Shown: piece by piece, positions 719-58,944 of the stretch | Numbering within the stretch: position 1 is the stretch's first letter | Layout: the number at the start of each line of letters is the position of its first letter | NCBI RefSeq assembly: GCF_036971445.1 | Contig: NC_091473.1 | Span: forward strand, 211,482,001-211,546,000 | Length of the DNA: 64,000 bases | Direction of reading: 5' to 3' | Source: Narcine bancroftii | Taxonomy: Eukaryota | Notes under the pieces: generated by a model | What the model saw: the letters and a program-made list of their open reading frames with translations, nothing else | What the model was told of the DNA's origin: nothing | Database searches by the model: none | Program-made: the position numbers and the translations under genes

Positions 719-1999
719 CGATTAGATGGTCTAGTTCATGCACTCAAAGGGTGTAGGGTTTCTTCGTGCAATGATCTCCGCAATCCTAATCCACTGATAA
801 AGCTGGATGATACTATGGTCCCAAGGAATCCAGAGTGTCAGACCACAACATAGCATTGTCTGAAGCTTTCTGCCTGGAAATGCTTTCTTAACCCTGTGAA
901 GAGAAGATGGTGGGAGAGGGAGAAAGACATTATCTGCAGCCAATGTTCCAGGACAACACACCCTGGAGGCAGAGCCAGCAACACGACAAACCGTGGAACT
1001 GTGAGGAGGACCATAGGCACATGGAGGATGAAATTTAGCACAGAGAAACAAGCATGATGTGTTTTAATGGAAAGGAGGGGAGGCAACAAACATTATGAAC
1101 CCAGACTTTACTATGAAATGGATTCTAATTTTGCAAACCACATTTTCATAAACATGAAGATCTGAGGGAGGGAGCAGGAATTATTTCAGATTTTTATGCA
1201 AAAGGCTCATGAAAGCTTTTGTTTCAGAGGTCAATGACCACAATATTACCCAGAATCCTCAACAGTACGAGCCTCAAAGGCACACATGTAAACTATATTC
1301 CTTTGTCAGCTTTCTACTATGATGTCAAAAGGATCATCAACTTCCGACCAATCGCAACCCAGCCTCAGTGGCATTAGACTCCTATGTCTCAACCGCTATC
1401 ACTCCCCTGATACCTCCCAAGTGTTAATTGCGTTCACTCACAACTGCACAAGGAACTCCTTGAGAAGCAATGCTGGGGGGTGGGGGGGGGGGGTGGGGAG
1501 AAAGGGGTTCCATTACAAAGAAGATCCTGATGTCAGGAATCCAGCTGTGTCCAAGAGCTGAGTTTGAACAGAGGCCAGCTAACTGGTGTAGACCTTGATG
1601 TTGACACCTCTGGCTACAAAGCGAAGCTTCGCAGAATAAGCTAGACTTAGATGGAGTGAAACATGAAAATGAGCAGATATTGTGATTGTAGTAAAAAAAC
1701 AGCAATGTTGGAGGAGCTCCTGCCCACAGGAGGTAAAGATAAATCACCGACATTTCAGGCCTGAACCCTTCTATTTTTTAAAAAAAACTTTATTTAAAAG
1801 ATAAGTAAAAAGTATAACATACAATCTAAATATTCAAACAAAGTAATTTTACAAAGATTTATACATAAAGAAAAACAAAACACAAGAAACATTTAAAAAA
1901 ACCCTTCACCCCCCCCTCCCCTCCCACCCCTTCAGTTACCTCCCTTAAGGGGAGCCAAAAATATAAATCATATATATTAAAAAAATTATAAATTTTAAT

Positions 2000-4900
2000 A
2001 ACAGTTCAAATATACATCCAATTGCATATATTTCAAATACAGAGGCCACTTATCAACAAAAAGAGAATAATTATCATGTAAATTATAAGTAATGTTTTTC
2101 CATAACAATACAAGCTTTCAATTCATTATGCCAGTATATTATATTAATTTCTACATCATCTTTCCAAGTACTAGCAACACATTTATGTGCTACAAATAAT
2201 ACCAAATGTACAAAAGTAATTTCAACTTTATCCAAACCCATTCCCCATAATGAATACAAATCTCCCAAAAAAAAAATCATTGGATCCAAAGGTAGTTTAA
2301 AATTATACAATTTTTCCAAAACTATTTTAATTTTTTGCAAAAATGGTTGGACTTTCACACAAGTCCAAACAGCATGCAAAAAAGTACCAGTACATAAACC
2401 GCATCCAAAGCAAGAATCAGAATTACTAAACCCATATTTTGTTAACTTTTCCGGGGTCAAATACAATTGATGTAAAAAATTATAATTGACCATACCATAT
2501 CTTTCATTAGTCAATTTAATTACATTGTCCTGACACATGTTCACCCAATCAGCTTTAGAAAAAGTAAACACTAAATCAGTCTCCCATTTAAGTTTAGATT
2601 TTTCCCAATCTGGTTTATCCATATTGTCCTGTAATAAATTATACAGAACTGAAATATAACCCTTCTTTGGTATAGTAGAAGTCAAAGATTCAAATTTCGA
2701 CAAAGTGGGTAAATACACATTTCTCTACCATAATTATCTTTTACCAAAGCCTTAAGCTGATAATACACAAATAAAGAATTTAAAGGTATTTCAAATCATT
2801 CTCTTAAATGGATAAAAGAAAGAAATTGTCCCTCTACAAAACTGTATTGTCCTGTATTGTCTTTATACCTTTAGAATTCCAAATCTTTAACTATTAAACA
2901 TTGAAAAAGGAATAAGCCGATTATTGTATAATGGAGTTAAAATTGATAATTTATCTTTTGACGCTAAAAAAAAATTCAATCCAAATCTTTAATAAATGTT
3001 TCAGTATTAGCATATCATATTCCTGTAATAAAATCAAATTCCAACAGAATATAAATTCATGTATCTCTGTTCTAGATAGACATGATATCTCCACCTTAGC
3101 CCAACTAGGAGGTTGATCCAAATCCATCAGACTACTAATAAACTTCAACTGAGCTGCCTCAATAATTTTGAAAATGTGGCAGTTGTAAGCCACCCAATGC
3201 ATATTTCCAAGTAAGTTTGTGCAACGCTACGTGGGCTAATTTACCTTTCCACAAAAACTCTCGTACTGCTTTATTCAAATCCTGAAAATAAACTCTTTGA
3301 AAGTAAACAAGGTATTGATTGAAATAAATATTGAATTCGAGGAAAGAATAATACAATTAACACATCCAATTAGAGATAATGGGAGATCTTTCCATTTAGT
3401 TAAGTCTGCTTTAATTCACCTCAATATAGGTGCATAGTTTAAATGATATAACGATTGATAGTCATTGTCCACAAACACACCTAAGTATTTGATTTTATTC
3501 ATCCATCTTAATTTTGTAATATTTTAAAATTCAGAATAATCTTCATCTCCAACTGGCAAAATTTCACTTTTATCCCAGTTAACTTTATATCCCGACAATT
3601 CTCCAAATTTCAATAAACTCTCCTGTAACTGTTTCAATGATCTCTCAGGCTCTGTCAAATAAATCAACACATCGTCTGCAAATAGATTAATTTTATATTC
3701 TTCATCCTAAATCCTCATCCCTCTAATATCCTCATTTTCTCTAATAGCCTGAGCTAATGGTTCTATAGCCAATGCAAATAGGGCTGGTGACAATGGGCAG
3801 CCCTGATGAGTTGATCGAGTCAATTTAAAAGGTAAAGATGTCTGTCCATTTGTCACCACCCTAGCATTTGGATTCATATATAAGGCCTTAACCCAACCAA
3901 TAAAGAAAAGGCCAAATTTAAATTTCTCTAATACCGTAAATAAAAAGTTCAATTCAACCCTATCAAAAGCTTTTTTGGCATTTAGTCCAACTACTATAGG
4001 ATGATTAGGTTGCTGCCAATATACATTGATCAAAGTAAGCAATCGAAGTATATTATCTTAGGCATTTCTATTCCTAATAAAACCTGTTTGATCAATATGT
4101 ACTAATTTAGGTAAATATTTAGCAAGTCTATTAGCTAATACTTTTGCCATAATTTTATAGTCTACATTCAATAAAGAAATAGGTCTATATGAAGATACCT
4201 GTAAAGGATCTCTGTCTTTCTTTGGGATAACAGTTATTAAAGCACTCAAACACGTTTCCAATAACTTCTGAACTTCAGTAACTTGATTTAACACTTCCCC
4301 AAATATATTAGAAAATTCATCATAAAAAAAGTTTATAGAATTCCACAGGAAACCCATCATCTCCTGGGGACTTACCATTAGGCATTTCCTGAATAGCTTC
4401 CTTGATTTCAAAATCCGTAAATGGATATTCCAACTCCTGAATATCTTTCTCATCTAGTACCGGTAACATTAATTTAGATAAGTAAGAATCAATAGAACCA
4501 TTATCTTGTTTCCCCTCTGAAATATTTTTTTTGATTAAATGAATAATACTGGTCATTAATTTGCTGAGGGTTGTAGGTGATTATTGAATTCTTCTCAACA
4601 GCATTAATAGTCCTAGATGCCTGTTCCACTTTCAATTGTGAGGCAAGTACCTTGTGAGCTCTTTCCCCCAAGTCATAATAATGTTGTTTAGATCTATTAA
4701 TTAAGCACTCATACTGGTAAGTTTGTAAAGTATTATAGTGTAATTTTAACTTCACTAACACGGCTTTTTTATCTTCTGTTATATCTTTCTAAAAATATTT
4801 CTCTAGTTCAGCAATCTGATTTTCCAACTGTAAATTTTCTGCCATATATTGTTTCTTAACTTTTGTAGAATAGCTAATGATCTGTCCCCTCAAATAATCT

Positions 4901-5734
4901 TTTAAAGCATCCCATACTAAAAAATGACTCTTTACAGAATTAACATTTTCAGTCAAAAATAAAGAAATATGCTCTTTAACAAAGGTAACAAACTTTTTTT
5001 TTCAATAACATTACATTAAACCTCCATCTATACATTGAACATACTATCTCTGAACTTTCACAAGAGAAAAATAATAATGAATGATCTGATATAAATCTAC
5101 TTTTATATTCAGTTTGCAGTACCCTACCCTGAAGATGTGCTGATACCAAAAATAAATCAATTCTGGAAAACGAGTTAATCCTTGAAGAATAAAAAGAAAA
5201 ATCTTTCTCTGTAGGATTAACATTTCTCCAAATATCTACCAAATTTAAATCTTTCATTAATGCATCAAGTTGTATTGCCATCTTTGACTTCCATATATTC
5301 TTCGGATTTCTATCTAATAAAGGATCTAAAACAATTGAAATCACCACCCACTAAAATATTCTCATTAGTCTGATTTAACAAGAAAATAGGTTCTGAAATA
5401 AACCGCTCATCATCTGTATTGGGTGCATATAAATTAAGCAGTGTCCAAAATTCCGCAAAAATTTTACAATTCACTCTTAAAACTCTACCAGCTTTATCAG
5501 TAGATTCCAATTCAAATGGTAAATTCTTATGAATTAAAATCGCTACTCCTTTTGCTTTAGAATTTAAAAAATAAAAAAACTTGACCAACCCAGTCTCTTT
5601 TCAATTTCAGATATTCTTTCTCAATCAAATGTGTTTCTTGTAAAAAAGCAATATCAATTTTCATCTTTTTAATATCTCTTTATTGGATTATTTAACCCCT
5701 GAACATTAAAAGTTGCGAAGTTCAATTTAGACAT
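2000..5734 (-). pseudogene. L1 ORF2p (APE endonuclease + reverse transcriptase), multiple frameshifts and stops
   Basis: Starts MSKLNFATFNVQGLNNPIKR at 5734. ORF pieces 5310..5588, 4976..5347, 4058..4453, 3707..4042 and 2083..2718 are collinear L1 ORF2 domains. Confidence 0.88.
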
Positions 5735-6029
5735 AATTTTAACTATTAGTAAATACACACACTAAAAAATTAAACTCTATAAAATAATGCTCCCCTTTGT
5801 AATCCTTCAAAAAGAAAAAAAGGAGAAAAAAGGAGGAAAAAAACACTCTTAAAAAAATCAAAACAAAAATAAAAAAAACAACACAAAAAAAACACCCAAA
5901 GGCAGTATTACCCTAAAAAAACTGGGTGTGGGAAACCCATTGGTGGCAGATTACTTGCAAAGTTTTTGGTGTCATCCACCCCCCCCCCCCCAGCTGGATA
6001 CATATTTATTATATAAATAAACACTTTCA

Positions 6030-7676
6030 AATATGGTCCATATCTTCAACCCAGTAACTCCGAACCCAACGATTGCTCTGGATCTTTGATATTAAGTGGA
6101 TTCTGTATTTCTTCTTTCTTTCCATTTTTTCCATTCAGCCCATTCTTTCCATTTCCACTGCCATTTCCATTTCCATTTAATCTCCTTTTAGGAGACAAAG
6201 GTGGAGAACAACCATTTCTTCTCAATTCCGGCAGGGAGTTGGCAAAGACTAAGGCATCATGATCATTTTCAAAAAATTGAGATTGAAAGTTTCCATAAAA
6301 AAACCTTCAAAATTGCAGGATAATGAAAAGTAAACTTATAACCTTTCTGCCACGGAACATCTTTAGCTGTATTGAATTCTCACCATCTATGAATAACTTC
6401 CTGACTCAAATCAGCATAAAAAAAGCACTCTGTTATTTTGACCATTAATGGGGATTGATTTTGTCATGCCTTTTGTACTGCCATACGTAAAATCATTTGT
6501 CTATCCTGGTATTTTAAACAACGAATCAAAACTTCTCTCGGTGGTTGTCCTGGAAGTGGTTTTCTTCTCAGAGCTCTATGAGCCCTATCTAACTCCAAAC
6601 CTTCAGGAAAGAACTCTTTACCCAAAACTTCTGGGACCCAGTGTTAAAATTTTTTTTATATAATCAGAGCCTTCAATATCTTTTGGAAGATCAACTATCT
6701 TCACATTATTTCTCCGACTCTGATTTTCCAAAGAATCAATCTTCTTCAATAAGTCTCTTTTTTTGAATTTCCCAATCTCCGAAAGATCCTTCCACTTTTT
6801 CTATTTTTTTCTCTATTACGCTCCTCTTGACTTTGACTCTCAGAAAACGCTGTCTCAATTTTCTTAAAATGTTCTTGTACAGTCTCAACAGATTTTATAC
6901 ATCTATTAATGTCACTTTTAACTATATTCATATCTTGCTTCATATTTGACATTCACATAAAATATGCATCTTCATTTTCACCTCCCTAAATCCTTGATTC
7001 ATTTGATCTGATATTTGTTTTGACATATTACCCATCTGATAGGCAATCCCTTCCAGAACTGTAAGTACTGAATCCATTCCAGATTCCAATTCCACTTTTT
7101 GAAGTTTACCTTCATAGGTTGCTGACTCCCCCTGCTGGATGTTTTCTGCAAAGGTAAGTAATTCCTCCTCTTCTGTTCGTATGGATGCCTTGACAGTGCA
7201 GCTGTGGGTCTGGACACCCGATGCTGGCATCCCAACCTCTTCGGGGCCCCGGCGTTCAGGCTCCCCCGCAGCCCACAACTTATCAAGGAGCTCCTGGACC
7301 CATGACGCTCTACATAGGCCGGGCAAAGCCACGGGGCATGCCGGAGAGTCTTCTGACACTACTCCGCGCGTCCCCAGGCCACCCGGCAAGATCACGGGGC
7401 CGCGGATCTCCCTGTTGACCGTGTCGTCCGTGCGCACAGCTTCACGTGCACGCGAATCGGCAGCTGCCGAACTCACCAAGGTGCTGGCACCATCTTGCGG
7501 GAGCAAGGTCAGTGCCGGTGTCAAAATCAGCCGGGCTGGGGTTCTCTTTGCCTTAGGAATCACCGAAATCGACTCTGAGGATTTCACTGTAAAGGTAGGC
7601 CTCAATTCTTCTGTACTTTTAAATGGCAATTTGTTTTGAAGTTGAGTCTTAGATTTTTTTTTACATTAGTTGCCAT
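6030..7676 (-). pseudogene. L1 ORF1p, frameshifted
   Basis: ATG at 7676 (MATNVKK...). Coiled-coil-like stretch (ORFs 6940..7629 and 6746..6952) followed by the RRM-start motif ENQSRRNNVKIVDLP at about 6690-6730. 3' end approximate. Confidence 0.7.
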
Positions 7677-7793
7677 AGTAATTTACTATTATTTTAAAAA
7701 TTAAAAATATTATTTTTAACTAATTTTAAACAACTTAATGTCGGGCGTTTAATGTTCCAGCTGGGAGAAGGTGGAATACACGTCTTGCCTTTA

Positions 7794-7803
7794 CGCCATC
7801 TTG
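7794..7803 (-). promoter_or_regulatory. YY1 site of the L1 internal promoter
   Basis: CAAGATGGCG about 13 nt from the element 5' end, the same position as the YY1 site in mammalian L1 5'UTRs. Confidence 0.7.
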
Positions 7804-8199
7804 CCACGTCCTCCCCCAGGCCTGAACCCCTCTTCAAGGTGTGTGCAAAAAGCAGACAGGCACCTAAAAGGAGACAGAGGAAAAAGGGAAGAGACCGAAA
7901 GACAGAGCTCGAGGAAAGGAAACATTGGGATTGGAAGAGATGTAGGGGGGTAACGGAAAGTGGAAACCCTTTTTCCTCTGTCTTCTTTCCCCCAGCCATG
8001 TTTTTACAGAGCCCAACCCTCTCCCCACCTCCCAAATCAATTCTCCTTTCCTCTCTCCAGTCCTCCTATGCCTATACAATCAATACCTCTTGTCTGTTGG
8101 TTTGTAGTCATCCCCTGACAAAATAGTTTTTTTTTCCTTTGGTTTTAGTTTGTTCTCTCTATCAATGATCTGGATGATATTGTAGAAAATTGAATCAGC

Positions 8200-11639: not shown

Positions 11640-14460
11640 TACCAATGGACACATTGATATGTCAACCAGGCAAAAGAGAAATGCTGCTGCTCTGTAATAA
11701 TTGACAGGTTCTCAAGGTGGGTTGAAGCATTTCCCACCATGCATGTGGACACCAAAACAATAGCTAAAGTGCTTACAAAAGAAATATTGCCAAGGTTTGA
11801 AGTGTGTCTGACTTTAAGTGGAAATAATAGGTCTCAATTTGCAATTGAGCATACAGACGCATTGTCTAACATTGTGGGAATTATAAAAATTCTCCAATCA
11901 GCTGGCATCGTAGAAAGACGTAATCCAAGATCACAAAATATAGGAGGCCCATTGTCCCATCGTCTGCTCTGCCATTCTAATCATGGGCTGATCCATCCTC
12001 CCACTCAACCCAACTCCTTGACGTTTTCCCAATAACCCTTGATGCCCTGATTAATCAAATACTTGTCAATCTCTGCCTTAAATATGCCCAACGACCTCAC
12101 TTCCACAGCTGTCTACAGCAAACAGTTCTGCAGACTCATGGCCCTCTGACTAGAGATATTTTCCACATCTCTGCTTTAAATTGATCCCCTTTTATCATGA
12201 AGTTGTGCCCTCTTGTCTTGGACTCCTCTACCATGGGAAACATCCTTACCACATCTACACTATCCAGGCCATTCAACATTCAAAATGCCTCTATGAGGTC
12301 TTCCTCATCCTTCTGTACTCCAAATACAGTCCCAGAGCTGACAAACGTTCCTCATATGTGAATACTTTCATTCCTGGTATCATTCTTGTAAATATTCTCT
12401 GAACCCTCTCCAATGCCAAATAAGGAACCCAAAACTGTACAAAATTGTCCAAGTGAGGTCTCACTTTATTGAGTCTCAACATTACATCCCTGTTCCATGC
12501 TATTCCTCTTCACCACCGATTCAACCTGGAGGTTAACCTTTAGGGTTTCCTGCACAAGGACTCCCTAGTCCCTTTGCATCTCTAAATTTTGAATTTTCTC
12601 CTCATCTAAACAAGTCTGTCCGAATTTTTCTTCCACCAACATTCATGACTGTACATGTTCCAAAACTTTATTTCATCTGCCACCTCTTTGCTCATTCTCC
12701 TAATCTATCCAAGTCTCTCTGCGGCCTTTCAGTATCTTCAGCACCACCTGCTCTACCACCTATTTTGGATTCATCTGCAAATTTAGCCACAAAGCCATAA
12801 TCTAAATCATTTATATATGTAAAAAGAAATGGCCCCAAAACTGACCTCTGTGAACACAACTGGCAAATAGGATCCCTTTGTTCCTACTCTCTGCTTCCTG
12901 CTGATCAGCCAACACTCTACTCAATGTTTGTATCCTTCTCGCAATTCCATGGGCTCTCATCCTGTTTAGCAACTTGTCGAAGGTCTTTTTTGAAGTCCAA
13001 ACCCACATCTATAATGGTGAACTTAAAGCTAAATTGGCAAAAATTTGCAAACAGACAGGGTTAAATTGGGTACAATGCTTACCGTTAGCACTCATGGCCA
13101 TGAGAAACAGTAGAAATAGATGTACCCAGTTAAAACTGCATGAGATGGTTGTAGGAAGGATGATGTCAATGCCAATGACTAAGCCCAGTGGCAAGGAGGT
13201 AAGCGTAGAAGGAGAACTAGATAGGTACTTGAAAGGACTAACTTTGGCTCTCAATTCTGTTTATTTCCAGGTTCAAAAAGCACAAGGTTCCCCAATGAAA
13301 GACAGAGCTACTAGTGAACCCCAGATAATGGGTGTAGATGAAGACATTTGAGGCAGTCTGAACCACTCAGGCAAATCTAACAATTCCAGGTGAACTTGTC
13401 AATACCTGCTGAGGTCAAGATTCATCTCAACTACTGCCGGAGAATCCCATGAGCAAGGGAGCAAGAGGAGGAGAAGGAAGGAGAGGACGGCACAAACAGA
13501 GGACACAGACTGATTAAATTTTTGTTTTATGTTCTGCAATTTATGTTTATTGTTCTTATTGGGTAAAGGAAGGGATTATGGATCTCCAGTAGGAACAGGG
13601 AAAATAGGGACAAAATGGCCTCTGTGTCAGTTTAAGAGATGAAGTGAGAAAAAATCTGATGGAGATTTAACCAGTGGGTTAAAAAAAACAATTATTAGGG
13701 ATCATAAAGAATGAAGTGGAATTCATGATTTACCAGAATCCGAAACATGAGGGTGTCACCAATCCCAAATGCAGAGGAAAATTTGGTGCCAGAATTTTAA
13801 TGGAAAAAGAGGGAGATGGCTTGATTCTGTACCATTGAATAATTTCATTAGAAATTTTCACTTGGAGAAAAATGGTAAATTGTGTTGATCCCTTGGTATT
13901 GAGTAACTTTCTTAGCTGATCACACAAGTAACCAGATGGCATTCACACCAACTTCTCTGGCTTTTGTTAAACCACAACTCACCCAACCCCACCTCCCCAT
14001 TTCTTCCCCCTCATCTTTTCCCAACACTACCTCTCTCTTTCTCTTCCCTTTTCCCGGTCTCCTTACACACTCATATTCATCTGGACTTCTACCCCAGCCA
14101 GCCTTTTCTTTATTCGGAGCCTTCCTGTTCTCTGCTTATCCTTGAAGATCTCTGGCCCAAAATGTCAGTAATATACCTTTACCTCCTCTTAATGATACAA
14201 GGCCAGCTGAGTTCCGACAAAATTTGTTTTTTTTTGTACAATCATAGCATCATCGGTCACGGAACCTACACCAAGACAGCTTTCGCAAACTATACCATTA
14301 ATAGATTCCATATTTTAACAGGACTAAGAATAAACTATATATAGCCACAGACTATATTTTGGCTAAGCAGGGTGGATTTTATGTTGCTTTAAATTTTGAC
14401 AGGTAATTCCAGATTCAGAAGCTAACATTTCAAATGAAATCAGTGTTTTGAAAACAATGA
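11640..14460 (+). mobile_element. ERV integrase-env remnant, split by a CR1 insertion
   Basis: DRFSRWVEAFPT...KEILPRF...QSAGIVERRN (to 11924) resumes at about 13012 as NGELKAKLAKICKQTGLNWVQCLPLAL. Env TM immunosuppressive-domain-like DYILAKQGG at about 14350-14376. Confidence 0.75.
11925..13011 (-). mobile_element. CR1-type LINE 3' fragment
   Basis: KVRPHLDNFVQFWVPY...LERVQRIFTRMIPGM...YEERLSALGLY (ORF 12291..12482) and FADESK. Confidence 0.8.
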
Positions 14461-15079: not shown

Positions 15080-15620
15080 GCAGATGCTGGGATCTAATGC
15101 AAGACACAAGTGCTGGAGAAACTCAGAAGGTCACACATCGTCCATCAACAATAAAAGGCCATCAACATTTTGAGCCTGAGCCCTTTCCCAGGACTGCCGA
15201 AAATAAGGCAGATGCCCACATTGAAAAGTGAGGTGAAGGGGGAGGAGCGCAGGCTTACAGGTGGATACTGGGGAGGGTAGGAGAGAGAGTGAGAGGGGGA
15301 GAGGCTTAAGAAGGGTAGCTCTCTGATGGGAGAAGGAAGTGAAGGCGGTGGGGAGTTGGAGGAGAGGAAACAGGGATAACAGAAACTGGAGAAGTTGCTA
15401 TTGATGCCACCTGGTTGGAGAGGGTCGGGACGGAATACAAGATGCAATGCACAATAGTGCTGGAGAAACTCAGCAGGACACACAGCGGCCACAGGAAGGG
15501 AAAGGCCATCAACGTTTCTGACTTGGGCCCTTTGTCAGGAATGTGGAAAAAAAAGACAGTTGTCTGAATTAAAAGGAGGGAGGGGGCGGGGGAGCAGTAC
15601 AGGTGAACTGGTAAGAGGTC
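15080..15620 (-). mobile_element. Penelope-like (PLE) 3' end with two pLTR-type repeats carrying hammerhead-like motifs
   Basis: HLVFRPDPLQPGGIN resembles the PLE GIY-YIG C-terminus. It is flanked by two CCTG.n.AAGGG-loop-GAAAyGT motifs at about 15160-15196 and 15507-15543. Confidence 0.6.
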
Positions 15621-17469: not shown

Positions 17470-17690
17470 GAGATAGAGTTGAGGGAACATGTGAGGTGGG
17501 ACAATGAAAGCCAGAGAAGTCAGTTTTAATGCCATCCAGTTGGAGGGAGCCCAGTCGGAAGATGAGGTGTTCCTTTAATTTGCAGGTGGTCTCAGCCTGG
17601 CAGTGCATGAGACCATGGACTATCAGCAAGGGAACGGGATGGGAAATTGAAATGGGTGGCCACTGGGAGATCCACACTACGGTGGACAGA
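17470..17690 (-). mobile_element. Penelope-like GIY-YIG C-terminal fragment
   Basis: VHGLMHCQAETTCKLKEHLIFRLGSLQLDGIKTDF (ORF 17432..17677); a similar piece lies at about 52095-52190. Confidence 0.65.
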
Positions 17691-20701: not shown

Positions 20702-20753
20702 CCAGCGCTCTCAGATGTTGTGGTTATTTCAGTGTTTGAAGGTGATCGAGAAA

Positions 20754-21116: not shown

Positions 21117-21156
21117 AGCTCCACAGAGAACTGACCAGACAGACAGAAAACCCAAC

Positions 21157-21172
21157 GGCTCTTTCAAGAGCC
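21157..21172 (+). terminator. Histone 3' stem-loop (loop TTCA, conserved third U lost) with downstream HDE-like AAAGTGTTG
   Basis: GGCTCT-TTCA-AGAGCC, preceded by CCCAAC and followed by ACTCA. Confidence 0.85.
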
Positions 21173-21627
21173 ACTCACAGTCTCACTGAAAGTGTTGTAC
21201 CAGTTTCCATAATAATTTCAGAGCGATTGATTATCCTGCGATTTCTGCTTCACGCATTTATTCTCATCTAAGTTTGTGGTTTCAGTGTTGAATTCCTGCC
21301 CCCTCAACAGCCAAGAAAATGTTTTATTCTCATCTGTTTATCATGGTCATTAAATATTTTGACAATTGGGCAAAATTTGATTAATGTGGGCAAAATACAA
21401 GCATTTTCACTATTCAATTGCTTCTGTGGGTACGTTCTATGATCTGAACCCCCGCATGTTGTAATTTCCCCGAACACCATCACCACCCCAGATCAGTCAG
21501 TTCACAGTGTTTTCCTGGAGGAACATTTACTGATGAGAATCGTTTCCTTTCCCGCATCTGTTACTTCTTGAAATAAATCGGGTAACTCTGTTCACGGCAA
21601 TTCTCGGGATATGAATACACACGATGT

Positions 21628-23779: not shown

Positions 23780-24117
23780 ACACGATATAAATGTGTCGTG
23801 ATTGAGTGATCACTGATGAGCAGAAATCACGCCAACAATCAGATTCACAACAACTTGTTTTCAGACTCTGCACAGATGAAAATTTCACGGCCTTTTCACA
23901 TTTCGGCGATTGGGGAAACCGGCCGTTATTCTCCCCGTTCAACGAGCTGCCGCCTGTTCATTGGTTGCTCTCGGAATGGGGACCTCGCTCAGCCAATGAC
24001 AGTGAGCACTGAAGGTCCAATCATCAGGCTCCCTTTCCATTCCTCCAAAAGATACAAAAAGGGCAACTGCGACCTCAGCTTCTTATTGGCAGTAAATAAG
24101 TTTGTAAAATTGTGGAG

Positions 24118-38100: not shown

Positions 38101-39754
38101 GCACTGGGTAAAAACCATTCAGCTGCTCCCTGTGTGGGAAGGGATTTTCTCAGTCCTCCAGCCTTGGGTACACCAATGAGTTGACACTGGGTAGAAACTG
38201 TTCATCTGCTCCCTGTGTGGGAAGAGGTTCTCTCATTCCTCCACTCTGCTGGGTCACCAGAGTGTTCACACTGGGGAGAAACACTGAAGTGTGAAAACAC
38301 TGCTCCTGTGTGGGAACGGGTTCTCATGGCAATCCAGCCTTTGGGTAAACCAATTGATTCACACAGGACAGAAAATATTCTCTCTTTCAAAGGGATGGCC
38401 AATTGCACCTCTCTGCAGCCCACCAGGATATTTGCACCAGGAAGAGAATGTTCACCTCCTCCCTGGTCAGGAAGAAATTCAATCAGCCCTCCAGTCAATG
38501 GGGACACCACCGAGTACATACGGGGGAGAGATACGCTCAAGATGGACAGTCAGCATCTTTTCTCTCCAGTAAAAGTTTCACACACTAAAGGTGTGTGTTT
38601 AAGCTGAGGGGGAGGGAGAAAGGTTAAGGGAAATGTTTAGGGCAAATCTTTTACTCAGAGGGTTGTGAGCACCTGGAATGAGCTACCAGGTCCAGTTGGT
38701 TCTTGACAGACCCATGAATATGGAAGGAGGTGGATCGTGTGTGGGCAGCAGATTAGTTTAACTTGGGCATCCCGTTCAGTACAGACACGTGGGCCGAAGG
38801 GTCAATGTTTCAGAGGCCAGTTTGAGGATTGCTGTGTTGATGGGGATTTTCTCTGTAGCCTGAACTCCACCTCATCTCACTCTCCCACTATTATTTGGCC
38901 TTCTGCCCTCTTTGTCTGCTGTTCTGAGTGTGGGGTTCCTGCATCTGTTGTTGCCTTTCGTGGATGCTGCCTGACCTACTGAGTTGCTCCAGCATTTTGT
39001 GTGTCGCTGCTGAGGTGACTGTGGTGGTGATCTGACGTGGTGCCTGCATGACTGGGCTTTTGTGACGAGATCATAAACCAGGCAAGAAACGTCAGTGTCA
39101 TTAACTGCTGGACAAGACATAGCTGTTAAAGTTCCTTTTGATGTTTGCAATTGATTAAGTTTAAAACTCGACACTGAAACCTCTGGATTTTAAGATAATG
39201 AGAGGGTGCAGATGCCGGGATCTAATACAGGACACAAGTACTGGAGAAACTCAGAAGGTTACGCAGCATCTATAGGGAGTAAAAGGCAGTCGACATTTCG
39301 GGCCTGAGCCCTTCCCCAGGAGTGCCAAAAATGAGGCAGAAGGGAAGGGGGAGGAGCACGGTGTGGAGGAAAATCTGAACACAAAGGGTTAAGGGTTCAC
39401 CCATAAGTTGCTTACAAGAACATACAAAAGTCAGTTGCATATTGCTTAAGTGGAGGCGGGGAACCTTAAGGTTGTGATTTATCTGCAGACATGATAAGCT
39501 CTGGAATTCTGTGAAACAATGATTAAATTCTTGCCAAATGTTGACAATGATAAACTATTGTCAGGTTGACCGCAACAGGAAGCCACATGCAGGAATGCAC
39601 TGCCATTTATTGTATATAAACTCTGTTAAAACTGGCTGTGAGCAGAGCAAGCTCAGGCTGGGTGCTGGGCATGCTCTCCAAGATATCTTGCTAATAAAAC
39701 TCTTCTGAAACATTACCCTGGTGTTGGTAGTTGATTCTTTCTCCGCAAAAAATC

Positions 39755-39772
39755 TGGCGCTGCGAGCAGGAT
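39755..39772 (+). promoter_or_regulatory. Primer-binding site, tRNA-Ser-like
   Basis: TGGCGCTGCGAGCAGGAT directly after the 5' LTR; resembles the complement of vertebrate tRNA-Ser(CGA/TGA) 3' ends (recalled, not searched). Confidence 0.7.
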
Positions 39773-39866
39773 CCTATTTGACAAGATCACGAACCTGGGA
39801 CTGAGGGTCCCGTAGGAGTGGGTGATGGCCCTAGCCAAGAACCTAGGTGAAAGGGGGTGAGGCAGT

Positions 39867-39984
39867 CTCACACACCAAAATCCCCACTTGAGAGGGTAAG
39901 GTGAGGCTCACACACCAAGATCCCTGCTTGAGAGGGTGAGGTGAAGCTCACACAGCGAGATCCCCGCTTGAGAGGGTGAGGTGA
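39867..39984 (+). repeat. Three 40-bp tandem repeats in the ERV leader
   Basis: Units ctcacacaccaagatccctgcttgagagggtgaggtgaag start at 39867, 39907 and 39947. Confidence 0.85.
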
Positions 39985-42462
39985 TGTCCAGAGAGTAGGA
40001 GTCTCTCTATCTAAAATGGGGGGAAGGTGGAGAAGTAGAACCCAGGGTGACAACGCGGACAGAAGAGGGAACTGACAACTCTGTATATATTGTATAACTG
40101 TTGTTAAGGTTTTACAGGAGACCAAGATGGGAAATCGGCTCAGCAAGGCAATTATTCCCGGTCGAGCACATAAGTCTGTTCCCAGGCCACGACAACGACC
40201 CCGATGAAGAAAGCCACTAAAGACCCAAGGAAAGGAACAACGGAGACGTCGCCAACTGGTAGGAGATCCGCTGCAGCCTCTGGGCTCGCCAGCTGACATC
40301 ATGATGAGAGAAACGGGAAACTGGAATTATGCCGTTCCGTTCAGTAATGATCTAAATATATTGTTCATGAATGAATAGGCGTACGGGGAAAGTTCAGCAG
40401 ATCTGAAAGAATCTACTAATAGTGAAAGAGGAGACCCCATTTGGGATCTCGGATATTTTAATGGGTGTTTTAATAAGTGAACAGAGGACACGAAGTGGCA
40501 TCAGCCCACGACCGGAAAGGAAGGAAAAGGGACAGACCCTAATTCGGAGTTTCCCGGGCCCACTTCATACTCCCCAGAGCACATCTGAGCCTCCAGGCAC
40601 GGCCTCTACTCCTCCTGTCAGCCTGTATCCCCAGTTATATGCTGGAAGGGGAAGCGACTGGGACAACCTGGTCCAGACAGCAGTGGCTTATGCCAGCAGG
40701 CCGCAAGACAGGGCCCCCATCGGGCCTGTGCGTCAGGCTGAACCTCCTGTTTTGCGAGAGGCGAGTGTTGCCTCTGCACCTGATGCTTCAGGGCACAGAG
40801 AACCCAGGTCTGAGAAAGGATTGGAGTAACAACGCATAGTGGGGGCAAAGGAAAAGCCAGATTCAACTAGTCAAATGCCCCGAAAAATGATCGGAGACAC
40901 CCCATACTAAAGCCCTGGATGCCCACTGAGGCACAGGACATGATTAGAGCAGCACCAGACCCAGTAAAGGAGACTCATAACGTTCCACTATTGGCTGCAG
41001 CAAACCTGCGCCATCTGTCATCACTTGCCCAGTGACATCCGTATGCTGTTACAAGCTGCCTACGGATCTCACTGGCAAGCAGTAAAAGAATCTTTCCTAG
41101 TCCCGATAGGAGAAAATGGGAGAAGTAACACACTTCCTACAGAAGGCTGGGGTTTTGTGGTTCATTTTAAAAACACTTGGAAGGAAAATGCTGGGGTGCC
41201 TTCACAAGATAACCAATCCTTGGCTGTGCAGACCTTGCTAAATTGCCTGCTGCCCCAAAATGTATAAGATGAAGCAATTGGATTGGCAAGGAAAGAAATG
41301 GGCTATTAACAATACTGTTACTGTATTGACTAATATGGACTAAAAAGGTTATTCACCCAGAAGGAGAAGCGAACAGGGCAGTTTTATATGTATATTTGTC
41401 CGAGAGTGGGGCAGGCCCTGGGATAAGACCCAGGATCAGTGCCGAAATTGCAGAATGAAGAGTCATTGACTACGGGAACGTAGAAGGCAGCCCTGGGGAA
41501 GACGATGGCAAAGAGGTGATGCCCATTGCCCTAGAGACCCTGGACCTTATCAAAATCCCCTTGTGGCCTAGGACTGTAACCAAAGGCCCCAGTTCTCCTT
41601 TCAGCAGCCCAACCCATAGGGGTGCCTGGAGGAGCACCTCTCCTCCAATTGTCCTTAGATGGAGAAAGCCAGCCTATCTTTAATGTGCAGATAGGGGGAA
41701 AAGAGAGTTTAATGTTGGTGGATATTGGGGCCACCATGTCATCTGTGCCACCATCCACAGGATTACCCTTGAGTGAAAAAACTGTAGATAGCATTGGGGT
41801 GTCCAGGACCCTTATGACTGTCCCTGATTCACAACCCACCATCCTGACGGTGGGAGATTAATTGTGTCACCCACGACCCCTGTCCCTATCTTAGGGAAAC
41901 AAGCTCTCTGCAAACTTAATGCTACTTTATATTGTACCGAGGAGGGCGTTTATATGCAACTGCCCGCCGCTAATACATACCAGCTTCTGCATTCACTGTG
42001 TGATTCTAAGCAGGAACACGACAAGTCATAACTAGTCCCCATGTTGCCCATGACACTTACTCGAGATGTCACTACCCCGGAGCAGCTTCAAGTAATACAG
42101 GAGCTGGAACTGAAAACCGCCCAAGAAACAGCTTCTGCCCTCAAGCAGTGTATGTGGGATACCCACAGCTGCCAAGTGGACAAAGGTTTGTTGAAGAGTA
42201 AAGACGGAAAGGTAGAGTGCCTGCGAAGTCTATATCGGCCCATAGTAAAACTGGACCATGGGCAAACCCACCTGGGAAAAGCGGGAATGCTGCATAATAT
42301 AAAGCAGGTATGGTTTTCTCCTGGAATTTCTACAAACATAGAAAGACAAGTGAGGAATTGTCTAATCTGTCAGAAGAACAATCTGCCAAATTTGATCGAT
42401 TGCCCCATGCTCAGGCCCCCTTTGAGAACTTGCAGATTGACTTTGCCCATATGCCCCCTCAA

Positions 42463-43111
42463 GACAATAGACACACACACCGAGAGCAGTTCAGCTTATA
42501 CAAATGTTTATTACAAATTCAAAAGCTGATTTCACTCTACAATATGCAAGCCCTTCCCAACTATACTTATCAACGCTTGGACTGGTCCCAACTGCCGAAG
42601 CGAGGCAACGATGCACACTTGTAGTAGGTTGTCAGGGCGCCAGTAGCAGCTTCTCCACCTCCCCTGACCGGGACGTTGGCTGGACTCCAGAAGTTCTTCT
42701 TCTTACTGAGAGATGTTGCCACCTCTCGGAGAGTCTCAAACTTCAGCAGCAGGACAATGGCTTATATTACCCAAAAACTGCTTACCCAAGCACCTATTCC
42801 CAGCACAGCAAGAAAGATAAGCAAGCAAGCTAGCATGCTAGGCTTCTAATGAATAACATAATTTTCAGTTTATCACTTTGAATATAATGGTTTATTTTGC
42901 ATCAAGGCTAGGCCTCTGACACTCTGTGACCAAAACAAGCAGGAAGATTAAATGTTCTTAGTACACAGATGTCCTTTCGTCAGATAACAGCATCTCTGGC
43001 CCGTTGGTGGAATTTAGCTTATGTCTGCTGGTACTAAAACACAAGCAGGTTCTGAGCCTTGCAGAACCCAGAGCTGTAAGTTTAAAAAAACAGGTTAGAA
43101 TCTTCCATTAC
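42463..43111 (-). mobile_element. Probable antisense solo LTR inserted in the ERV integrase
   Basis: Splits QIDFAHMPP from KYWLVIVDMFTRW; minus strand begins TGTAATGGAAG, with AATAAA near 42510. Confidence 0.55.
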
Positions 43112-45124
43112 AAAAGGGTAAAGTACTGGCTGGTTATAGTGGATATGTTTACCCGATGGATAGAAGCCTACCCGACTAGGAGAGATGATGCCCAGACAGT
43201 GGCCAAAGTCCTGATGAAGGAACTGATTCTCCGCTACGGGATCCCCAGAGGGATAAATAGCGATAGAGGGACCCATTTTATGGGAAAGATAGTGGTAGCC
43301 CTGACTGAGATAATGAGGGATCCAATGGTGCTCAGGCCAGAGATATTTCTGAGACAGCCAAAAATGAAACTTTGAATTTGCCATCCCTCAAATAAAACAG
43401 ACTCCCAGAGCCTTGTGTGCCTCCTAAGTTTTGGCAGCAGAACCTACCCCACCTCTTTGAACCACCCTATAGGGTCTCCCACAAGAAAGCCACTTCCTCT
43501 GGGAACCAGAACAACAGGCTGCATTTGACACAGCAAAGCAAGCTATTGAACAAGCACTGCCCCTTGTCCCCTGCCAGGCAAGTGTTCCTTTTAAATTACA
43601 GATCTCAGCCAGTAAGGCAGGAGCTGAATGGATTCTCCGGCAGAAGATGCAAGGGTGCAGAGTCCTGCTAGTCTTCTGGAGAAAATCTCTGCCTGGTGCC
43701 GCCACTCGCTACAACCCATTTGACACTGGGACATCGGCCAACACTTTCCTCAGGGTTGTTTATGAATTTGCGAGCACCTGGACAGTGACACCGAACTGAC
43801 GACTGACCAACAAGACAGTTCGTCATGTATTACAAAAAAAAATAATGAAGAGAACAGCTGTTGCTCTGGAAACTATCACTGGACATTTTATCTTGTCAAG
43901 CCTTCAACTTTTTTAAAATTGCATGTTTTGCTGTGGTTTTTACAATACATAATGTCTCTAAGCACACTCAGAGAAACTAAAGTCTATAGGTACATAATCT
44001 CACTGTGAATGTAAAGTTACAGTTTGTGAGCTGACCAATCAATGATCAGACCCCATGGTAGGAAACATCATATATATTTTGTTTTGCAATGATGGCATCA
44101 CCCCAGAAACTCCCATTAACAGAAAAACATCTAATGGGGTGGGGGCTGTGGGAGCCTTTATTTAAAAATGCTAAATTGGCTAATTTTCTGTCCTGACTCC
44201 TCCTGGCTATGGATACAGGGATCCAACGCAGGCATTTTGGGCCCCCCGTTGAAAGAGAACGTGAGCATGAATGCCATTTTGGTGTCAAACATCAGCCCAG
44301 AAAAGCAGACGCCCCTGATGTAGACCTGCTGGCCTGCCCCCTGCCTCACCATGGGTTAGCACGATGACAGGCACCTGGACTCTATGCCTGAGGAGTGCCC
44401 AACCATGAGGCCAAGGCGCGGGATCCGCAAGCCAAGGAGTTAGGTATGGGATGTTGATATCTGGATCAACAAGGAGGAACTGTGGAGGAAAATCTGAACA
44501 AAAAGAGTTAAGGGTTCACCCATAAGTTGCTTACAAGAACATATAAGAGTCAGTTGCATATTGCTTAAGCGGAGGCGGGGAACCTTAGGGTTGTGATTTA
44601 TCTGCGGACATGATAAGATTTGGAATTCTGTGAAACAATGATTAAATTCTTGCCAAATGTTGACAATGATAAACTATTGTCAGCTTGAGCAACAGGAAGC
44701 CACATGCAGGAATGCACTGCCATTTATTTATTGTATATAAACTCTGTTAAAACTGGCTGTGAGCAGAGCAAGCCCAGGCTGGGTGCTGGGCATGTTCTCC
44801 AAGATATCTTGCTAATAAAACTCTTCTGAAGCGTTACCCTGGTGTTGGTAGTTGATTCTTTCTCCACCACACATGGGCTTACTGGTGGATACTGGTGGGA
44901 GGGTAGAAGAGAGAGAAGGTGAGAGGGCTAAGAAGGGTAGCTCTCTGATGGGAGAAGGAAGTGAAGGGGGTGGGGAGCTGGAGGAGAAACAGAAGAATAA
45001 CAGAAACTGGAGGTTGATATTGATGCCACCTGGTTGGAGAGGGTCGGGGCGGAATATAAGCTGCAATGCACAATAGTGCTGGAGAAACTCAGCAGGACAC
45101 ACAGCGGCCACAGGAAGGGAAAGG

Positions 45125-45162
45125 CAGTCGACATTTCGGATTTGGGCCCTTCATCAGGAATG
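45125..45162 (-). ncRNA. Minimal type-I hammerhead ribozyme motif in a PLE-derived repeat
   Basis: Minus strand CAUUC-CUGAUGA-A-GGG(cccaaa)UCC-GAAA-UGUC|GACUG: intact core boxes, 3-bp stem II, 4/5-bp stem I, GUC triplet. Confidence 0.6.
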
Positions 45163-45845
45163 TAGAAAATTAAGGAGGGAGGGACAGGGGGTGCAGCACA
45201 GGTGAACTAGTCATAGGTGGATACAGGTGAGAGAATATACAGAACCTGAAAAGTGACCGGTGAGATGACAGACAGTTTTTCTCTGATCAGATAAGTCTGG
45301 GAAGGAGATAGGGAACTGGGGAGTGGGGGGGGGGGGGGGGGGTGTGGGGAGGAGGGGAAGGAGACAGATCAGGGAAAGAAAGACTCTGAAAGGTCTCCAA
45401 AAGTAACCCTGGAAATTATAGGCTGGTGACTGTGACCTCAGTAATAGGTAAATAATCGGGTGTTCTAAGAGATCCTATATACTAGTATTTTGATAGCCTG
45501 GGACTGATTAGGTTGTCAACATGGCTTCATACGTGGTAGGGAATGTTTAACCAATCTAATAATTTTTTTTGAGGAGGTTACCAGGAACCTGTGGGTGTTG
45601 TCTGTATGGACTTTGGAAAGGCCTTTGACAAGCTCCCGTCAGGATGGCCAGACACTCGGTATTCATGGTGAGGTAATAAAATGGATTTGACATTGGCAAA
45701 ACAGGAGAGGTCAGAGAGTGTTTGGGGATGAAAACTCCTCAGTCTGGACACCTGTGACTAGTGATGTGTCTCTGGGACTGGTTGTTGTTTCTCATCTATA
45801 GTAATGATCTGGATGATAATGTGGTAAATTGGATCAGCAAGTTTG

Positions 45846-51629: not shown

Positions 51630-51741
51630 CAACCGTGCCTTCCTGTCCCGCATCGAACTTGTCAGTCACCAACGAGCCTGCAGCAGACGTGGACGTACCC
51701 CTCCATAAATCTTCGTCCACGAAGCCAAGCCAAAGAAGAAG
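51630..51741 (+). mobile_element. Very short RTE 3'-end insertion (112 bp)
   Basis: Matches the 3' end of the 21628 RTE; (GAA)n tail; 10-bp TSD atttaaaatt at 51620-51629 and 51742-51751. Confidence 0.85.
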
Positions 51742-54129
51742 ATTTAAAATTATGAGGGATCCAGACAGTGAATGTGGGTAGAATTTTTCCACTAAGGTTA
51801 GGTCAGATATAAACCAGAGGACATGGGTAAAGAATGAAAACAAAGGTTTAGAGGGAATGTGAGGGGAACTTTTACACACGGTAGTGAGTGTGTGGAACAA
51901 GCTGCCAGCTGAAGTGATGAATGTGGGCCCCATTTTAACATTTAAGAAGAATTTGAACAAGTACATGGATGGCAGAGGTGAGGAGGGAAATGGATTCGGT
52001 GCAGGTCAGTGGGACTAGACAGAAAAATACTTCAGCACGGATAAGAAGGGCCAAAGGGCCTGTTTCTGTAATGTTCTATGGTTCTAAAAGTGGGTTTGTG
52101 GAAATTGGCAGTCAATGATCATGGCGTCTGGTTGGAGACTGCAGAGATGGAATATAAGGTGTTGTCCCCCCAGTTTGTGGGTGGTGTCGACGATTGGGGT
52201 CCAGATTGTTGTTCCGATTGGGATTTTCCTTGCAGCTCCAGCTCTCTGTGTGTTTGTACAATCCCCAGTTGACCTGCTGCCCCTGTTCATCGGATTTTTC
52301 ATCTAAACTGCATCATATCTCCTGAGTCACTTCCCCTTTGTACTTGCTGGGCTGGCCTGTATGGATGGGCCCTGTCTGACCTGTACCTTGATGAATATTG
52401 AATAAAAATGGCTGTGATGGGAAGATTCTGATCTTGTTCTCGACTTCTGAAGCACCTTCAGGGCAACTTTATCTCCAGATTTAACAGCAAGTAGCTGTTG
52501 GAATGTCCTTTAAAACTCATTGACCAATGCCTATTCCAATGTAATGCTGGTAACCTGTGGATGACCCCATCAGGGATTTTGCCCCCTTATTATTCCCACC
52601 CTGGCCATACTCTCTTCAGAAGAAGTATGACATCACACACCACCAGGTTCAAGGACAGTTTATTTCACACCATCATCAGACTCGCAAACAAATCCCCAAA
52701 TTATGATGCCTTTGCCCCAAATCAACGGATCTTTTTGTAACTCTGCATTTTGCACTCATGTACTGTGAACGAGATGACTATTTGTCTGATCACTGAACAA
52801 CCTGTAACCCTGGATTTATCCCTTGGGTAAACAGATAGGCAATGATTCGGGTCGGGACCCTTTCCTGATAGGGGAAGAGGAGAGAGAGCAAGCAGGGGAA
52901 GGGCTGGGGAGGGAAAACTGACAAATATTTTTCTTTGAACTGGGTGTCCTAGATGTATGAAACTCCACTTCTGCTGACATATTTCACAGGGTCACAAGTT
53001 GTCTGAGTCACTGGTCCATCCCAGAAAACTGGAGTTCTCCAATTTCTCCCAAACATTCTACCCAAATCCTCCCCAGGTTGTCTGGACCATTCCCATTCTG
53101 AGATTGGTTTTGATCCAGAAGAAGAATAAATGAGAGAGAAAAGTGATCACGACTAATTTATTTACCACAGGAAAACATTTAACAAAAAGCAAAAGAACAA
53201 GCTTCTAACCCTTCAACCCATTGGGGACTCAACTTGAACGCCAGCTAAACAGTGGGGATGTGGAAAGGGATGGGGATGGCACTTCCTTTGCAAAGATGGT
53301 GTTGGTGGACGGAGTTCCCTTTCAGGAGCTGGGGGAGGTTCAGGCATCGGATGGTAGGGGAAGGGGTTGGGAACCACTCACACACACCTGGACACTGATA
53401 TCTCTGACTGCCAAACCGAACCTCACTGAGCGGGAGTTGCAAAGATCGAGTCGCTACAGTAAAACAAGTCAAAATTAAGTCACCTCACATTCTTCTTGCC
53501 ACCCCCACCCCCCCACCCAATCTAGTTCTGTTAACTTTGCTTCAATCAGACACATTCTCCACTCCAATCCAAGTAGATCTGCTCCTGTCTGAACGGCAAC
53601 TTGGATCCATTTGCCAACTGCAGCAACAGGTCTACAGCAGATGCCTTTTCCCTGGCTCAACTCAAAGCTCAGAACATGTGATCAGCATCAGGATGCTCTT
53701 TATCGATTGCAGTTTGGCATTCACTACCATCATCCCCTCAAAACTGATCCTGGATTTCTTCATCTAAAGACCACAAACAGTGAGCATTGGTAAGAACATA
53801 TCCTCCACTATCTCCATCCACACCGGAACATCACAGGGCTGTGTTCTTCACCCCTTCTCTACTCACTTTACCCCAGAGTCCCCAAACCTTTTAGACCATT
53901 CATCCTAAATGGTATTTTTGATACTTCATCGACCCCCAGTGCCAGATCGGGGAGTTGGTGCTGGTGTCGGACAGAGGGAGTGGTGGTCCCGGATGAGGGG
54001 GACAGCACCAGATGAGGGTGGGGGTAGGGTTGCAGTGGCAGGTGGAGGGTGAGTTTTGGTGACAGACTGGGTCTGGGGTGTGGCATATTGCTGCTTCTCT
54101 ACTCCATCAGACCATCACTCTCTTCTTAT

Positions 54130-57790: not shown

Positions 57791-58944
57791 AAAGCAAATT
57801 TAAACAAATTTTACTTAATAGATATTCAATTTTAATTGAGGCTTACTTTCTCTAACCTCTCCCAGTAAAACTAACATTCGATCCTGTAGGAACTTTACTC
57901 CATTTATTCGTTCTAATAAGTTACCCAATTCAAACAAAAAAAAGTTTAATTGTGGAACACGGCCTAGTCAGATGTCAACGTTTTTGCCCACAATGCAACG
58001 GGGCCTGAAACCGTTCCAATTACCGCAAGAAAACGGAGACAAAAACTGGAACTAAAGTACGTGACCTCCCTTTCTAACGTAACAAGTACAGAGCCCGCCT
58101 CCTCAACCGGTCTCCGATCTTCCACCAATGCCCGACTTCAGAAATCTGTCAGTCATGCCTCGAGACCATTCTCCCCGTCGAATTCGGCAATAAAAACTGT
58201 CAATCATGCTCCCTCGCACCTGCGCACTGAGGACAAAGCCACGCTTCTTTTTCTCAGGAAATACATAGAAATGCTGGAAGATCTCAGCAGGTCCCGCAGC
58301 GTCCACCGGAGGTAAAGATCTTCTCCCGACTGCTCGGACCTGAGCCCTTCTTCAAGTTGTGAGAAAAAGTCAGCGCAGGGTGTTTTCATCCTCCAGCCCC
58401 CCTGGCTGTAGCCGGAGACGAGCGAAAACCTCCACTCTTCTCCCCTTCTCCCTTTGACAGGATAGGATAGATTTCTTCCGGTCCAGAAACTGGTCCATTT
58501 CCACAGGATCTGAACTTACTGACACCCTCTCTCCTCCAATGTATAAACGATCCAATAACTCACCCCCGTCTTCCGCATGAAGGCACCGGCTTCACCCCCT
58601 GTCGCCCTCACGCCCCGCTTTCACACCGTGTACTCAGGTCAACGTTTTCCCTCCGTCTCCTGCTGCCCGTTTACAATTTTAGAAATCATCATTTTTACAT
58701 TTTGTGTACATTTTATTTTTTTCCTTAATCTTAAAACATTCCACTCTTCAAATCACCCCCCAAACACCCTCCACAATTCCGTGCTTTCTCCTGTGTTAAA
58801 CAGCAGCGGGAACTGCACCGGATCGGCTCCGATTCCCTGTCCACAGTGACCCGGTGAGAGAGAGCGACTTCTGATTGGTGGAGCGAGGCGCTGTGATTTG
58901 TTCGCTCGGGTATCCAACCAGAACTGTCACCGCAAAATATATCA

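Follow-up and report, generated by a model that had tools for sequence, protein, structure and literature searches.

A Complete-Core Minimal Hammerhead Motif, Likely a Decayed Copy, in a Shortened Penelope-Like 3′ End Piece of Narcine bancroftii

Introduction

A short stretch of the Narcine bancroftii genome that reads as a hammerhead ribozyme with every core letter in place raises two questions: does it belong to a ribozyme-bearing repeat family, and can this copy still cut RNA? It lies at positions 45125-45162 on the minus strand of the window, by which the whole 64-kb stretch of DNA analyzed is meant. [quoted passage not shown] These cut weakly even as dimers, and single decayed copies, mostly truncated and present in high number, are the usual state of Penelope hammerheads. 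The stretch considered here has a complete core and sits in a 3′ end piece, truncated, of a Penelope-like retrotransposon that is abundant; it is likely what decay has left of a dimer-type minimal ribozyme, without activity.

The Motif and Its Chance Level

From 45162 to 45125, the minus strand of the window sequence reads successively CAUUC, CUGAUGA, A, GGG, cccaaa, UCC, GAAA, UG, U, C, and GACUG. The parts are laid out as follows, with hammerhead numbering and the role of G12 taken from PMC4209133 and PMC6155905.

45125..45162, minus strand: minimal type-I hammerhead motif (copy a), by sequence, descriptor, core scoring, and folding
45157-45151, minus strand: core C3-A9 of copy a, followed by the extra A at 45150
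45149-45147 with 45140-45138, minus strand: stem II of copy a
45137-45134, minus strand: GAAA of copy a, followed by UG-U-C at 45133-45130
45162-45158 with 45129-45125, minus strand: stem I of copy a
Single positions, minus strand: C3 at 45157, G10.1 at 45149, C11.1 at 45138, G12 at 45137, U15.2/G16.2 at 45133/45132, C17 at 45130

All 13 scored core letters are intact (C3 U4 G5 A6 G8 A9, G10.1, C11.1, G12 A13 A14 A15.1, U16.1), position 17 is C, the GUC triplet is kept, and the predicted cut site falls between 45130 and 45129. Stem I is paired at four of its five positions, with a U-C mismatch at the third pair and two contiguous pairs beside the core; stem II consists of three pairs (G-C, G-C, G-U) around a 6-nt loop. 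An earlier, sequence-only reading had reported this minus-strand arrangement, with both core boxes, the 3-bp stem II, a stem I of four pairs in five, and the GUC triplet, and the letters bear it out. The motif is unlikely to be an assembly error, since two public contigs from two separate studies are identical to the locus over the motif without one differing letter, and that candidate was rejected.

Copy a is the sole match in the window to the combination of core boxes, a stem II of at least 3 bp, and GAAA-NN-UH, for which 1000 dinucleotide shuffles gave 0.002 matches per window; none of the shuffled windows contained stem I (4/5 pairs) as well. A reading of the hammerhead likeness as chance in an unrelated repeat could draw on an Rfam scan of the whole window (E up to 10) that returned no hammerhead family, the significant matches being histone stem-loops only, on the isolated sequence folding no better than shuffles (z +0.81), and on both-side stem changes that do not exceed shuffles (see below). 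The Rfam miss may be a consequence of models that expect helix III. Given the shuffled expectation, on which a chance match was rejected, and given that the extra A, G10.1-C11.1, GAAANNUH, and the site behind a GIY-YIG end all fit the published pattern, coincidence is almost certainly not the explanation.

The canonical type-I hammerhead (Schistosoma Sm-alpha type) has the same core letters and topology and was rejected as the identity of the motif, which has no 6-bp helix I, no helix III, no loop 1-loop 2 contacts, and no Rfam match. With the min-HHR of PMC4209133, copy a shares the CUGANGA box (here CUGAUGA) and one extra base (A) before stem II, G10.1-C11.1, a stem II of 3-7 bp (three here, four in the family), a loop of 3-10 nt (six here), GAAA-NN-UH (GAAA-UG-UC), and the absence of helix III. 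A short stem I, a U-rich 5′ flank, and a position downstream of a GIY-YIG ORF are further traits common to both. Unlike the min-HHR, copy a has U-G for the palindromic C-G and only two contiguous stem I pairs; since it thus fails on the palindrome and on a 3-bp stem I, while the family has both, it is filed as a decayed copy. The motif would act like the min-HHR that metazoan Penelope-like elements carry, and it descends from that min-HHR. The hammerhead motif is real, its family was correctly named, and its kind is already known.

Related Copies and Stem Pairing

The window contains ten copies that bear a hammerhead, derived from seven insertions if copy g, which is in two halves, is taken as one; three further fragments consist of the tail only. 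Their common pattern is the core box, A, GGGC-UCAG-GCC, GAAA, NG, and UC. The copies other than a are as follows.

39285..39326, minus strand: hammerhead b, former tandem partner of a; 4-bp stem II intact, six of seven stem I pairs, A6 changed to G in the core
15507..15543, minus strand: paralogue of copy a; ACGU kept, G8 and C11.1 lost
15157..15198, minus strand: paralogue of copy b; the paralogue of a lies 347 nt upstream; A6, G8, and G12 changed
58325..58360, minus strand: decayed copy c; its paralogue at 20355-20390 is without 10 nt including GAAA
30340..30385, plus strand: decayed copy d, by core scoring and leave-out profile
30765..30805, minus strand: decayed copy e; the endonuclease end at 31177-31127 lies about 380 nt upstream
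14128..14175, plus strand: decayed copy f; the endonuclease end at 13930-13968 lies about 200 nt upstream
1745..7845, minus strand: copy g, in halves 1745-1773 and 7817-7845, interrupted within the hammerhead

Six of the ten are segmental paralogues that belong to a duplicated block; the three pairs are 45.1k/15.5k for copy a, 39.3k/15.2k for copy b, and 58.3k/20.4k for copy c. Leave-out profiles, for which each copy and its paralogue were removed before scoring, recovered 10 of 11 segments with E values from 1e-4 to 5e-21, against 0.5-6 for the best reversed-sequence control; the 7817-7854 half (37 nt) of copy g reached only E 0.058. All nine places at which degenerate versions had been proposed fall within the 11 tested segments; the copies are not all independent, three pairs being paralogous.

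Copy g is split by a 6-kb LINE-type RT element flanked by a 16-bp target duplication (15/16 identical); the element (window 1773-7817, minus strand) contains RT fragments and an A-rich tail. Copies g and c at 58k, and probably f (7845, 58355, and the 14135 region), carry UUGAAGA instead of CUGANGA, a U3 variant that is also listed for Saccoglossus (PMC4209133 Fig. S3). This variant may be a subfamily mark or decay; the paralogue of c at 20k has C. Copies d (plus strand) and e (minus strand) converge tail to tail about 280 nt apart (window 30214-30820), and 30390-30702 is 87% identical to 14481-14795.

When the 11 segments are aligned, stem II is paired in 85% of its cells and stem I in 56%, and the hammerhead register, with 70% of cells paired, stands above all six slid controls (18-58%). 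Both-side changes number one pair against a shuffle mean of 2.6, in an alignment of 11 segments that is small, decayed, and partly misaligned, with the halves of g as separate rows. By eye, stem I of copy g (CACC/GGUG) differs from that of a and b (CAGUC/GACUG) at three compensatory positions, and the two b paralogues combined give a 7-bp stem I. The sequence-only reading had made a consensus with CUGANGA/GAAA and stem covariation the test of the family. The boxes are kept in the shared pattern, and this part stood; covariation among the window copies did not rise above shuffles.

The Family in Public Contigs

Contigs were placed on 44990-45270 at a threshold of 80% likeness, yielding 8290, 1225, 9885, and 759 in four sets, most of them on a tail box at 45060-45110. 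That the repeat is an abundant ribozyme-bearing family, as had been proposed, is upheld by these thousands of placed contigs and by the CUGANGA and GAAA of the shared pattern. Variant rows were called at a 10% threshold. Contig shares are not copy counts, because they are biased toward the letters of the query: position 7 varies among the window copies yet gave no row. Within that reading, letters other than those of copy a occur at stem II 45140-45142 in 34-79% of contig depth, giving a 4-bp stem GGGC/GCCC, and changed letters occur at G12 in 10-62%, C11.1 in 8-24%, 16.2 in 5-27%, 17 in 11-30%, and 1.1 in 1-18%. The 3′ arm of stem I varies to a lesser degree, at 45125, 45127, and 45128. No variant row was found across 45143-45202, the CUGAUGA box included. 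Besides stem II and these lesser rows, the changed positions are letters that are CpG in the family form, even the catalytic G12. Position 15.2 (45133) is C in 17-71% of contig depth and the 15.5k paralogue keeps ACGU, which agrees with the earlier proposal that ACGU has decayed to AUGU in copy a. The pattern agrees with neutral decay among the copies of a master that itself has the motif intact. A commoner subfamily carries GAAACGUU or CpG-decayed forms of it together with another stem I arm, as seen in the 24 listed of 609 loose ends.

Pattern scans for the motif gave 0 matches in viral contigs and eight in metagenome contigs, none of the latter resembling four shark and ray Penelope proteins; elasmobranch contigs were not found in either scan. 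Only one of the eight (L003) passes the descriptor of PMC4209133 and served as the folding comparator: at 735-768 (minus strand) of a 1.5-kb metagenome record, it is an intact minimal hammerhead with a 5-bp stem I, a 6-bp stem II, and ACGU, on a contig with no Penelope protein match. Three others (L002, L006, and L007; minus strand) sit on metagenome contigs of 39% GC, which are possibly host-animal DNA, and show the core, a GGGC/GCCC stem II like that of this family, ACGU, and a poor stem I. When L002 and L007 were folded, stem I did not form.

The Link to Penelope-Like Elements

The tail of motif a joins directly onto the last codons of a GIY-YIG endonuclease at 45063. The sequence features that bear on this link are as follows.

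45163..45330, minus strand: pyrimidine-rich stretch upstream of the motif, the inferred 3′ untranslated part (pLTR) of a 5′-truncated Penelope-like copy; common to the 15.5k paralogue and, weakly, to 30214-30428
45064..45124, minus strand: conserved tail past the cut site, ending in the very abundant box (45060-45110), over which contig depth is at least 100-fold above the rest
44877..45063, minus strand: start of unit b, with the last ~20 endonuclease codons (45063-45005) and a 3′ untranslated stretch; leave-out DNA profile E 1.1e-6
15375..15446, minus strand: endonuclease end between the two 15k hammerheads; tblastn E 0.001-0.004, profile E 8.5e-9
17503..17690, minus strand: longer, frameshifted fragment of a Penelope GIY-YIG C-terminus, the query that led to shark and ray proteins

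Six fragments of the endonuclease end, picked from the matches of earlier searches, were scored in the window with leave-out E values of 6e-4 to 3e-11 (controls 0.3-2.9). Behind four of them, at a distance of about 200-380 nt and in the same strand orientation, stands a hammerhead copy (b in two cases, e, and f); three of these cases are independent, and two fragments have no hammerhead behind them; none was found behind the 17503..17690 fragment. For the 45063-45005 end, the protein profile gave iE 0.019 (best control 0.18) and tblastn E 0.06. The window search found no endonuclease end directly upstream of copy a, which instead starts in pyrimidine-rich sequence, as would be expected of a more deeply truncated copy.

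Fragment 17504-17629 matched two proteins of two candidates, one with a GIY-YIG domain (E 1.7e-4), and this protein in turn matched 40 of 79 candidates, including ones from Rhincodon, Stegostoma, Mobula, Hypanus, and Chiloscyllium. Among seven relatives scanned, GIY-YIG was present in five and RVT_1, weakly, in three (E 1e-4 to 8e-3). The combination of RT and GIY-YIG in one ORF that marks an EN+ Penelope-like element is thus found through the relatives, the window itself holding the endonuclease end only. A CX2-5CxxC linker, which lies outside the window, is present in 11 of 22 scorable relatives (42 fetched). The Penelope origin claimed for the repeat is therefore substantiated by a tail joined to a GIY-YIG end and by relatives that are RT and GIY-YIG proteins of sharks and rays.

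The Stegostoma relative (P0021) runs about 120 codons beyond the endonuclease end, and its last 14 residues resemble, by eye only, a translation of the hammerhead; BLASTP of this protein against frame 44931-45206 gave no significant match. A Hypanus protein (P0031) bears the label of a divergent protein kinase domain isoform and yet includes Penelope GIY-YIG sequence, which is due either to an artefact of annotation or to exon capture.

Locus History

Motifs a and b are parted in the 45k locus by a later insertion and closed off by an inverted piece, as follows.

39362..44871, plus strand: LTR retroelement between hammerheads a and b, with LTRs at 39362-39744 and 44481-44871 (96% identical)
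38929..39000, plus strand: inverted tail fragment closing the composite insertion; paralogue at 14811-14879

The LTR retroelement is bordered by a 5-bp target duplication with one mismatch and contains broken protease, RNase H, and integrase fragments; another integrase fragment occurs at 11661-12032. In the 15k paralogues, motifs a and b stand head to tail, 347 nt apart, followed by the inverted tail piece, and with the LTR element removed the a-b spacing at the 45k locus is about 324 nt. A 5′-truncated partial tandem with an adjacent inverted piece, which PMC8557442 gives as a trait of EN+ Penelope elements, is present at the a-b locus, where the inverted tail sequence covers 38956-39000 and, in the paralogue, 14834-14879. 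The paralogous units differ at 45/449 (a) and 60/402 (b) positions, the two LTRs at 14/381. From these divergences and the observed arrangement we infer the order of events. First, two 5′-truncated 3′ ends would have come to lie in head-to-tail order, spaced by about 320-350 nt and followed by a tail piece in inverted orientation; the block would then have been duplicated (10-15% divergence); and the LTR element (3.7% between LTRs) would have inserted last, parting motifs a and b by 5.5 kb. Since insertion, copy a would have drifted from ACGU to AUGU, from four stem II pairs to three, and into its stem I mismatch.

The duplicated block (14800-28200 vs 38900-64000) is 77-91% identical, with different later insertions, and comprises histone genes, with H2B, H2A, H3, H4, and H1 frames and six matches to the histone stem-loop; in the second block (38900-64000), several of these frames look broken. 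A 467-codon open RT frame at 21530-22930 (minus strand; Pfam RVT_1 E 1e-12) is found in one histone block only, and related pieces at 26215-26344 and 51630-51744 are 86-92% identical to it, which suggests a fairly young non-LTR element. Degenerate repeats at window 1-600 and 37500-38350, in opposite orientations, have frames like C2H2 zinc-finger coding sequence.

Rather than a one-off tandem, the a+b unit might be a non-autonomous family of its own (SINE-like or a non-LTR retrozyme) spread as a unit with Penelope enzymes. Non-LTR retrozymes (PMC7229834; bioRxiv 10.64898/2026.07.22.740005) resemble the locus in type-I hammerheads, units of about 350 nt, and kinship to Penelope pLTRs; the preprint reports them in one chondrichthyan, whose mean unit of 363 bp is near the 347-nt spacing, and the a+b unit occurs twice in the window. 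However, both occurrences lie inside the larger duplicated block with histone genes, a and b are unequal in length and sequence, and b starts inside the endonuclease ORF. Among the matches listed, moreover, most loose ends at 45062 run into the normal family tail rather than into the endonuclease end, and few contigs span the a/b junction. Two consecutive units with complete motifs are absent, and unlike the retrozymes the locus consists of a pair of unequal units rather than an array; the core of one is broken, and unit b includes endonuclease coding sequence. We regard a separate non-autonomous family as improbable. An active non-LTR retrozyme in the 2026 definition (a run of two or more units whose hammerheads are complete) was rejected, partner b having A6G in both paralogues and lying 5.5 kb away here.

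Activity of Copy a

In an active element, the RNA would have two such motifs (tandem end repeats), each without a stem III of its own. The two ACGU stretches would pair mutually, completing both cores, and cutting would follow after GUC/GUU, probably aided by the protein of the element, as PMC4209133 and PMC11167929 suggest. The copy at 45125-45162 had been put forward as the best candidate for such activity. No other copy keeps every core letter, but the proposal is not supported: the stems are weak, the descriptor is failed, and an intact partner in cis is lacking.

Copy a fails the published descriptor (PMC4209133 Fig. S7, stem I of 3-7 contiguous bp), because its stem I has two contiguous pairs where at least three are required; the descriptor has no match in the window. 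The hammerhead fold of copy a amounts to -1.2 kcal/mol, against a minimum of -3.9 kcal/mol for the same sequence and -14.8 kcal/mol for the hammerhead fold of the 39.3k copy (b). With 8-nt flanks its stem-closing pairs have probabilities of 0.02-0.065, and these do not exceed 0.001 when the flanks are 30 or 60 nt long, whereas the stems of comparator L003 pair with 0.64-1.0. Copy b reaches 0.84-0.95 with 8-nt flanks and 0 with longer ones, and has A6G in its core. At the palindromic 15.2-16.2, copy a has a U-G wobble where the 15.5k paralogue has C-G, and the self-duplex energy is +2.6 kcal/mol for AUGU vs -1.7 kcal/mol for ACGU; AUGU can still form two U-G wobbles. The lost stem II pair, the stem I mismatch, the failed descriptor, stem probabilities of at most 0.07, and a broken, distant partner together indicate that copy a is probably inert. 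With A6G present in both b paralogues, the partner in cis had likely lost its function by the time the block was duplicated. A weak fold is no proof of inactivity, since the energies ignore protein help and dimer geometry, and even in active elements the hammerhead cuts poorly or needs protein to cut (PMC4209133, PMC11167929).

The intact core itself likely survived by chance. Among the 104 core letters of the eight scored copies, 19 have been lost (18% per core site), and at that rate the probability of one intact core among the eight is 0.45, a figure that includes copy a, counts paralogues as independent, leaves out f and the 20k paralogue of c, and takes g as scored by eye. One intact core among eight thus fits neutral decay.

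Copy a might nevertheless still cut, either in a homodimer held together by U-G wobbles or in trans, in a mixed dimer with transcribed ACGU family RNAs, perhaps with the aid of protein. All 13 core letters and the GUC triplet are intact, the family is very abundant, and the hammerhead of an anole element cuts only when the element's protein is added (PMC11167929). Against this stand the stem probabilities (at most 0.065) and the descriptor failure, a partner b that is broken and 5.8 kb away, and a U-G at 15.2/16.2 that appears, by eye, in none of the 56 motifs listed in PMC4209133 Fig. S3; eight of nine Xenopus dimer elements, moreover, remained uncut in vitro (bioRxiv 10.64898/2026.07.22.740005). 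Continued cutting is accordingly held to be unlikely, and a decayed, inactive copy remains the preferred reading. An extension, to which very little credence is given, is that dispersed intact-core copies are completed in trans (ACGU/AUGU) by abundant transcribed family RNAs and cut the host transcripts that carry them.

Relation to Known Elements and Significance

The anole Poseidon element PAc offers a model for cutting by an intact copy: like this family, it has a hammerhead in the pLTR followed by a tail, and its cutting is protein-assisted (Frangieh et al. 2024, PMC11167929). The PAc hammerhead is not required for insertion in vitro, and the PAc ORF starts inside the hammerhead motif. The CX2-5CxxC linker found in 11 of 22 relatives is, by contrast, a mark of Neptune/Nematis and not of Poseidon, per PMC8557442.

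Cartilaginous fish are absent from the 56 motifs listed in PMC4209133 (Fig. S3, Table S1). An account of a minimal Penelope hammerhead in sharks or rays was not found in the literature searched, where coverage of subscription journals was thin; Lunse et al. 2016 and the supplement of the 2026 retrozyme preprint may name such families. The main work on hammerhead dimer cleavage is reportedly that of Lunse, Weinberg and Breaker in 2016.

For copy a itself, the importance is little, its kind having been described in 2014, and young intact elements are better suited to studies of how the ribozyme serves its element in vivo. If the doubtful completion in trans were true, Penelope debris in shark and ray genomes would form a genome-wide, dose-dependent RNA cleavage network. 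What the locus adds is small: an elasmobranch family not found described in the literature searched, and a site with a readable history of tandem insertion, block duplication, and LTR insertion.
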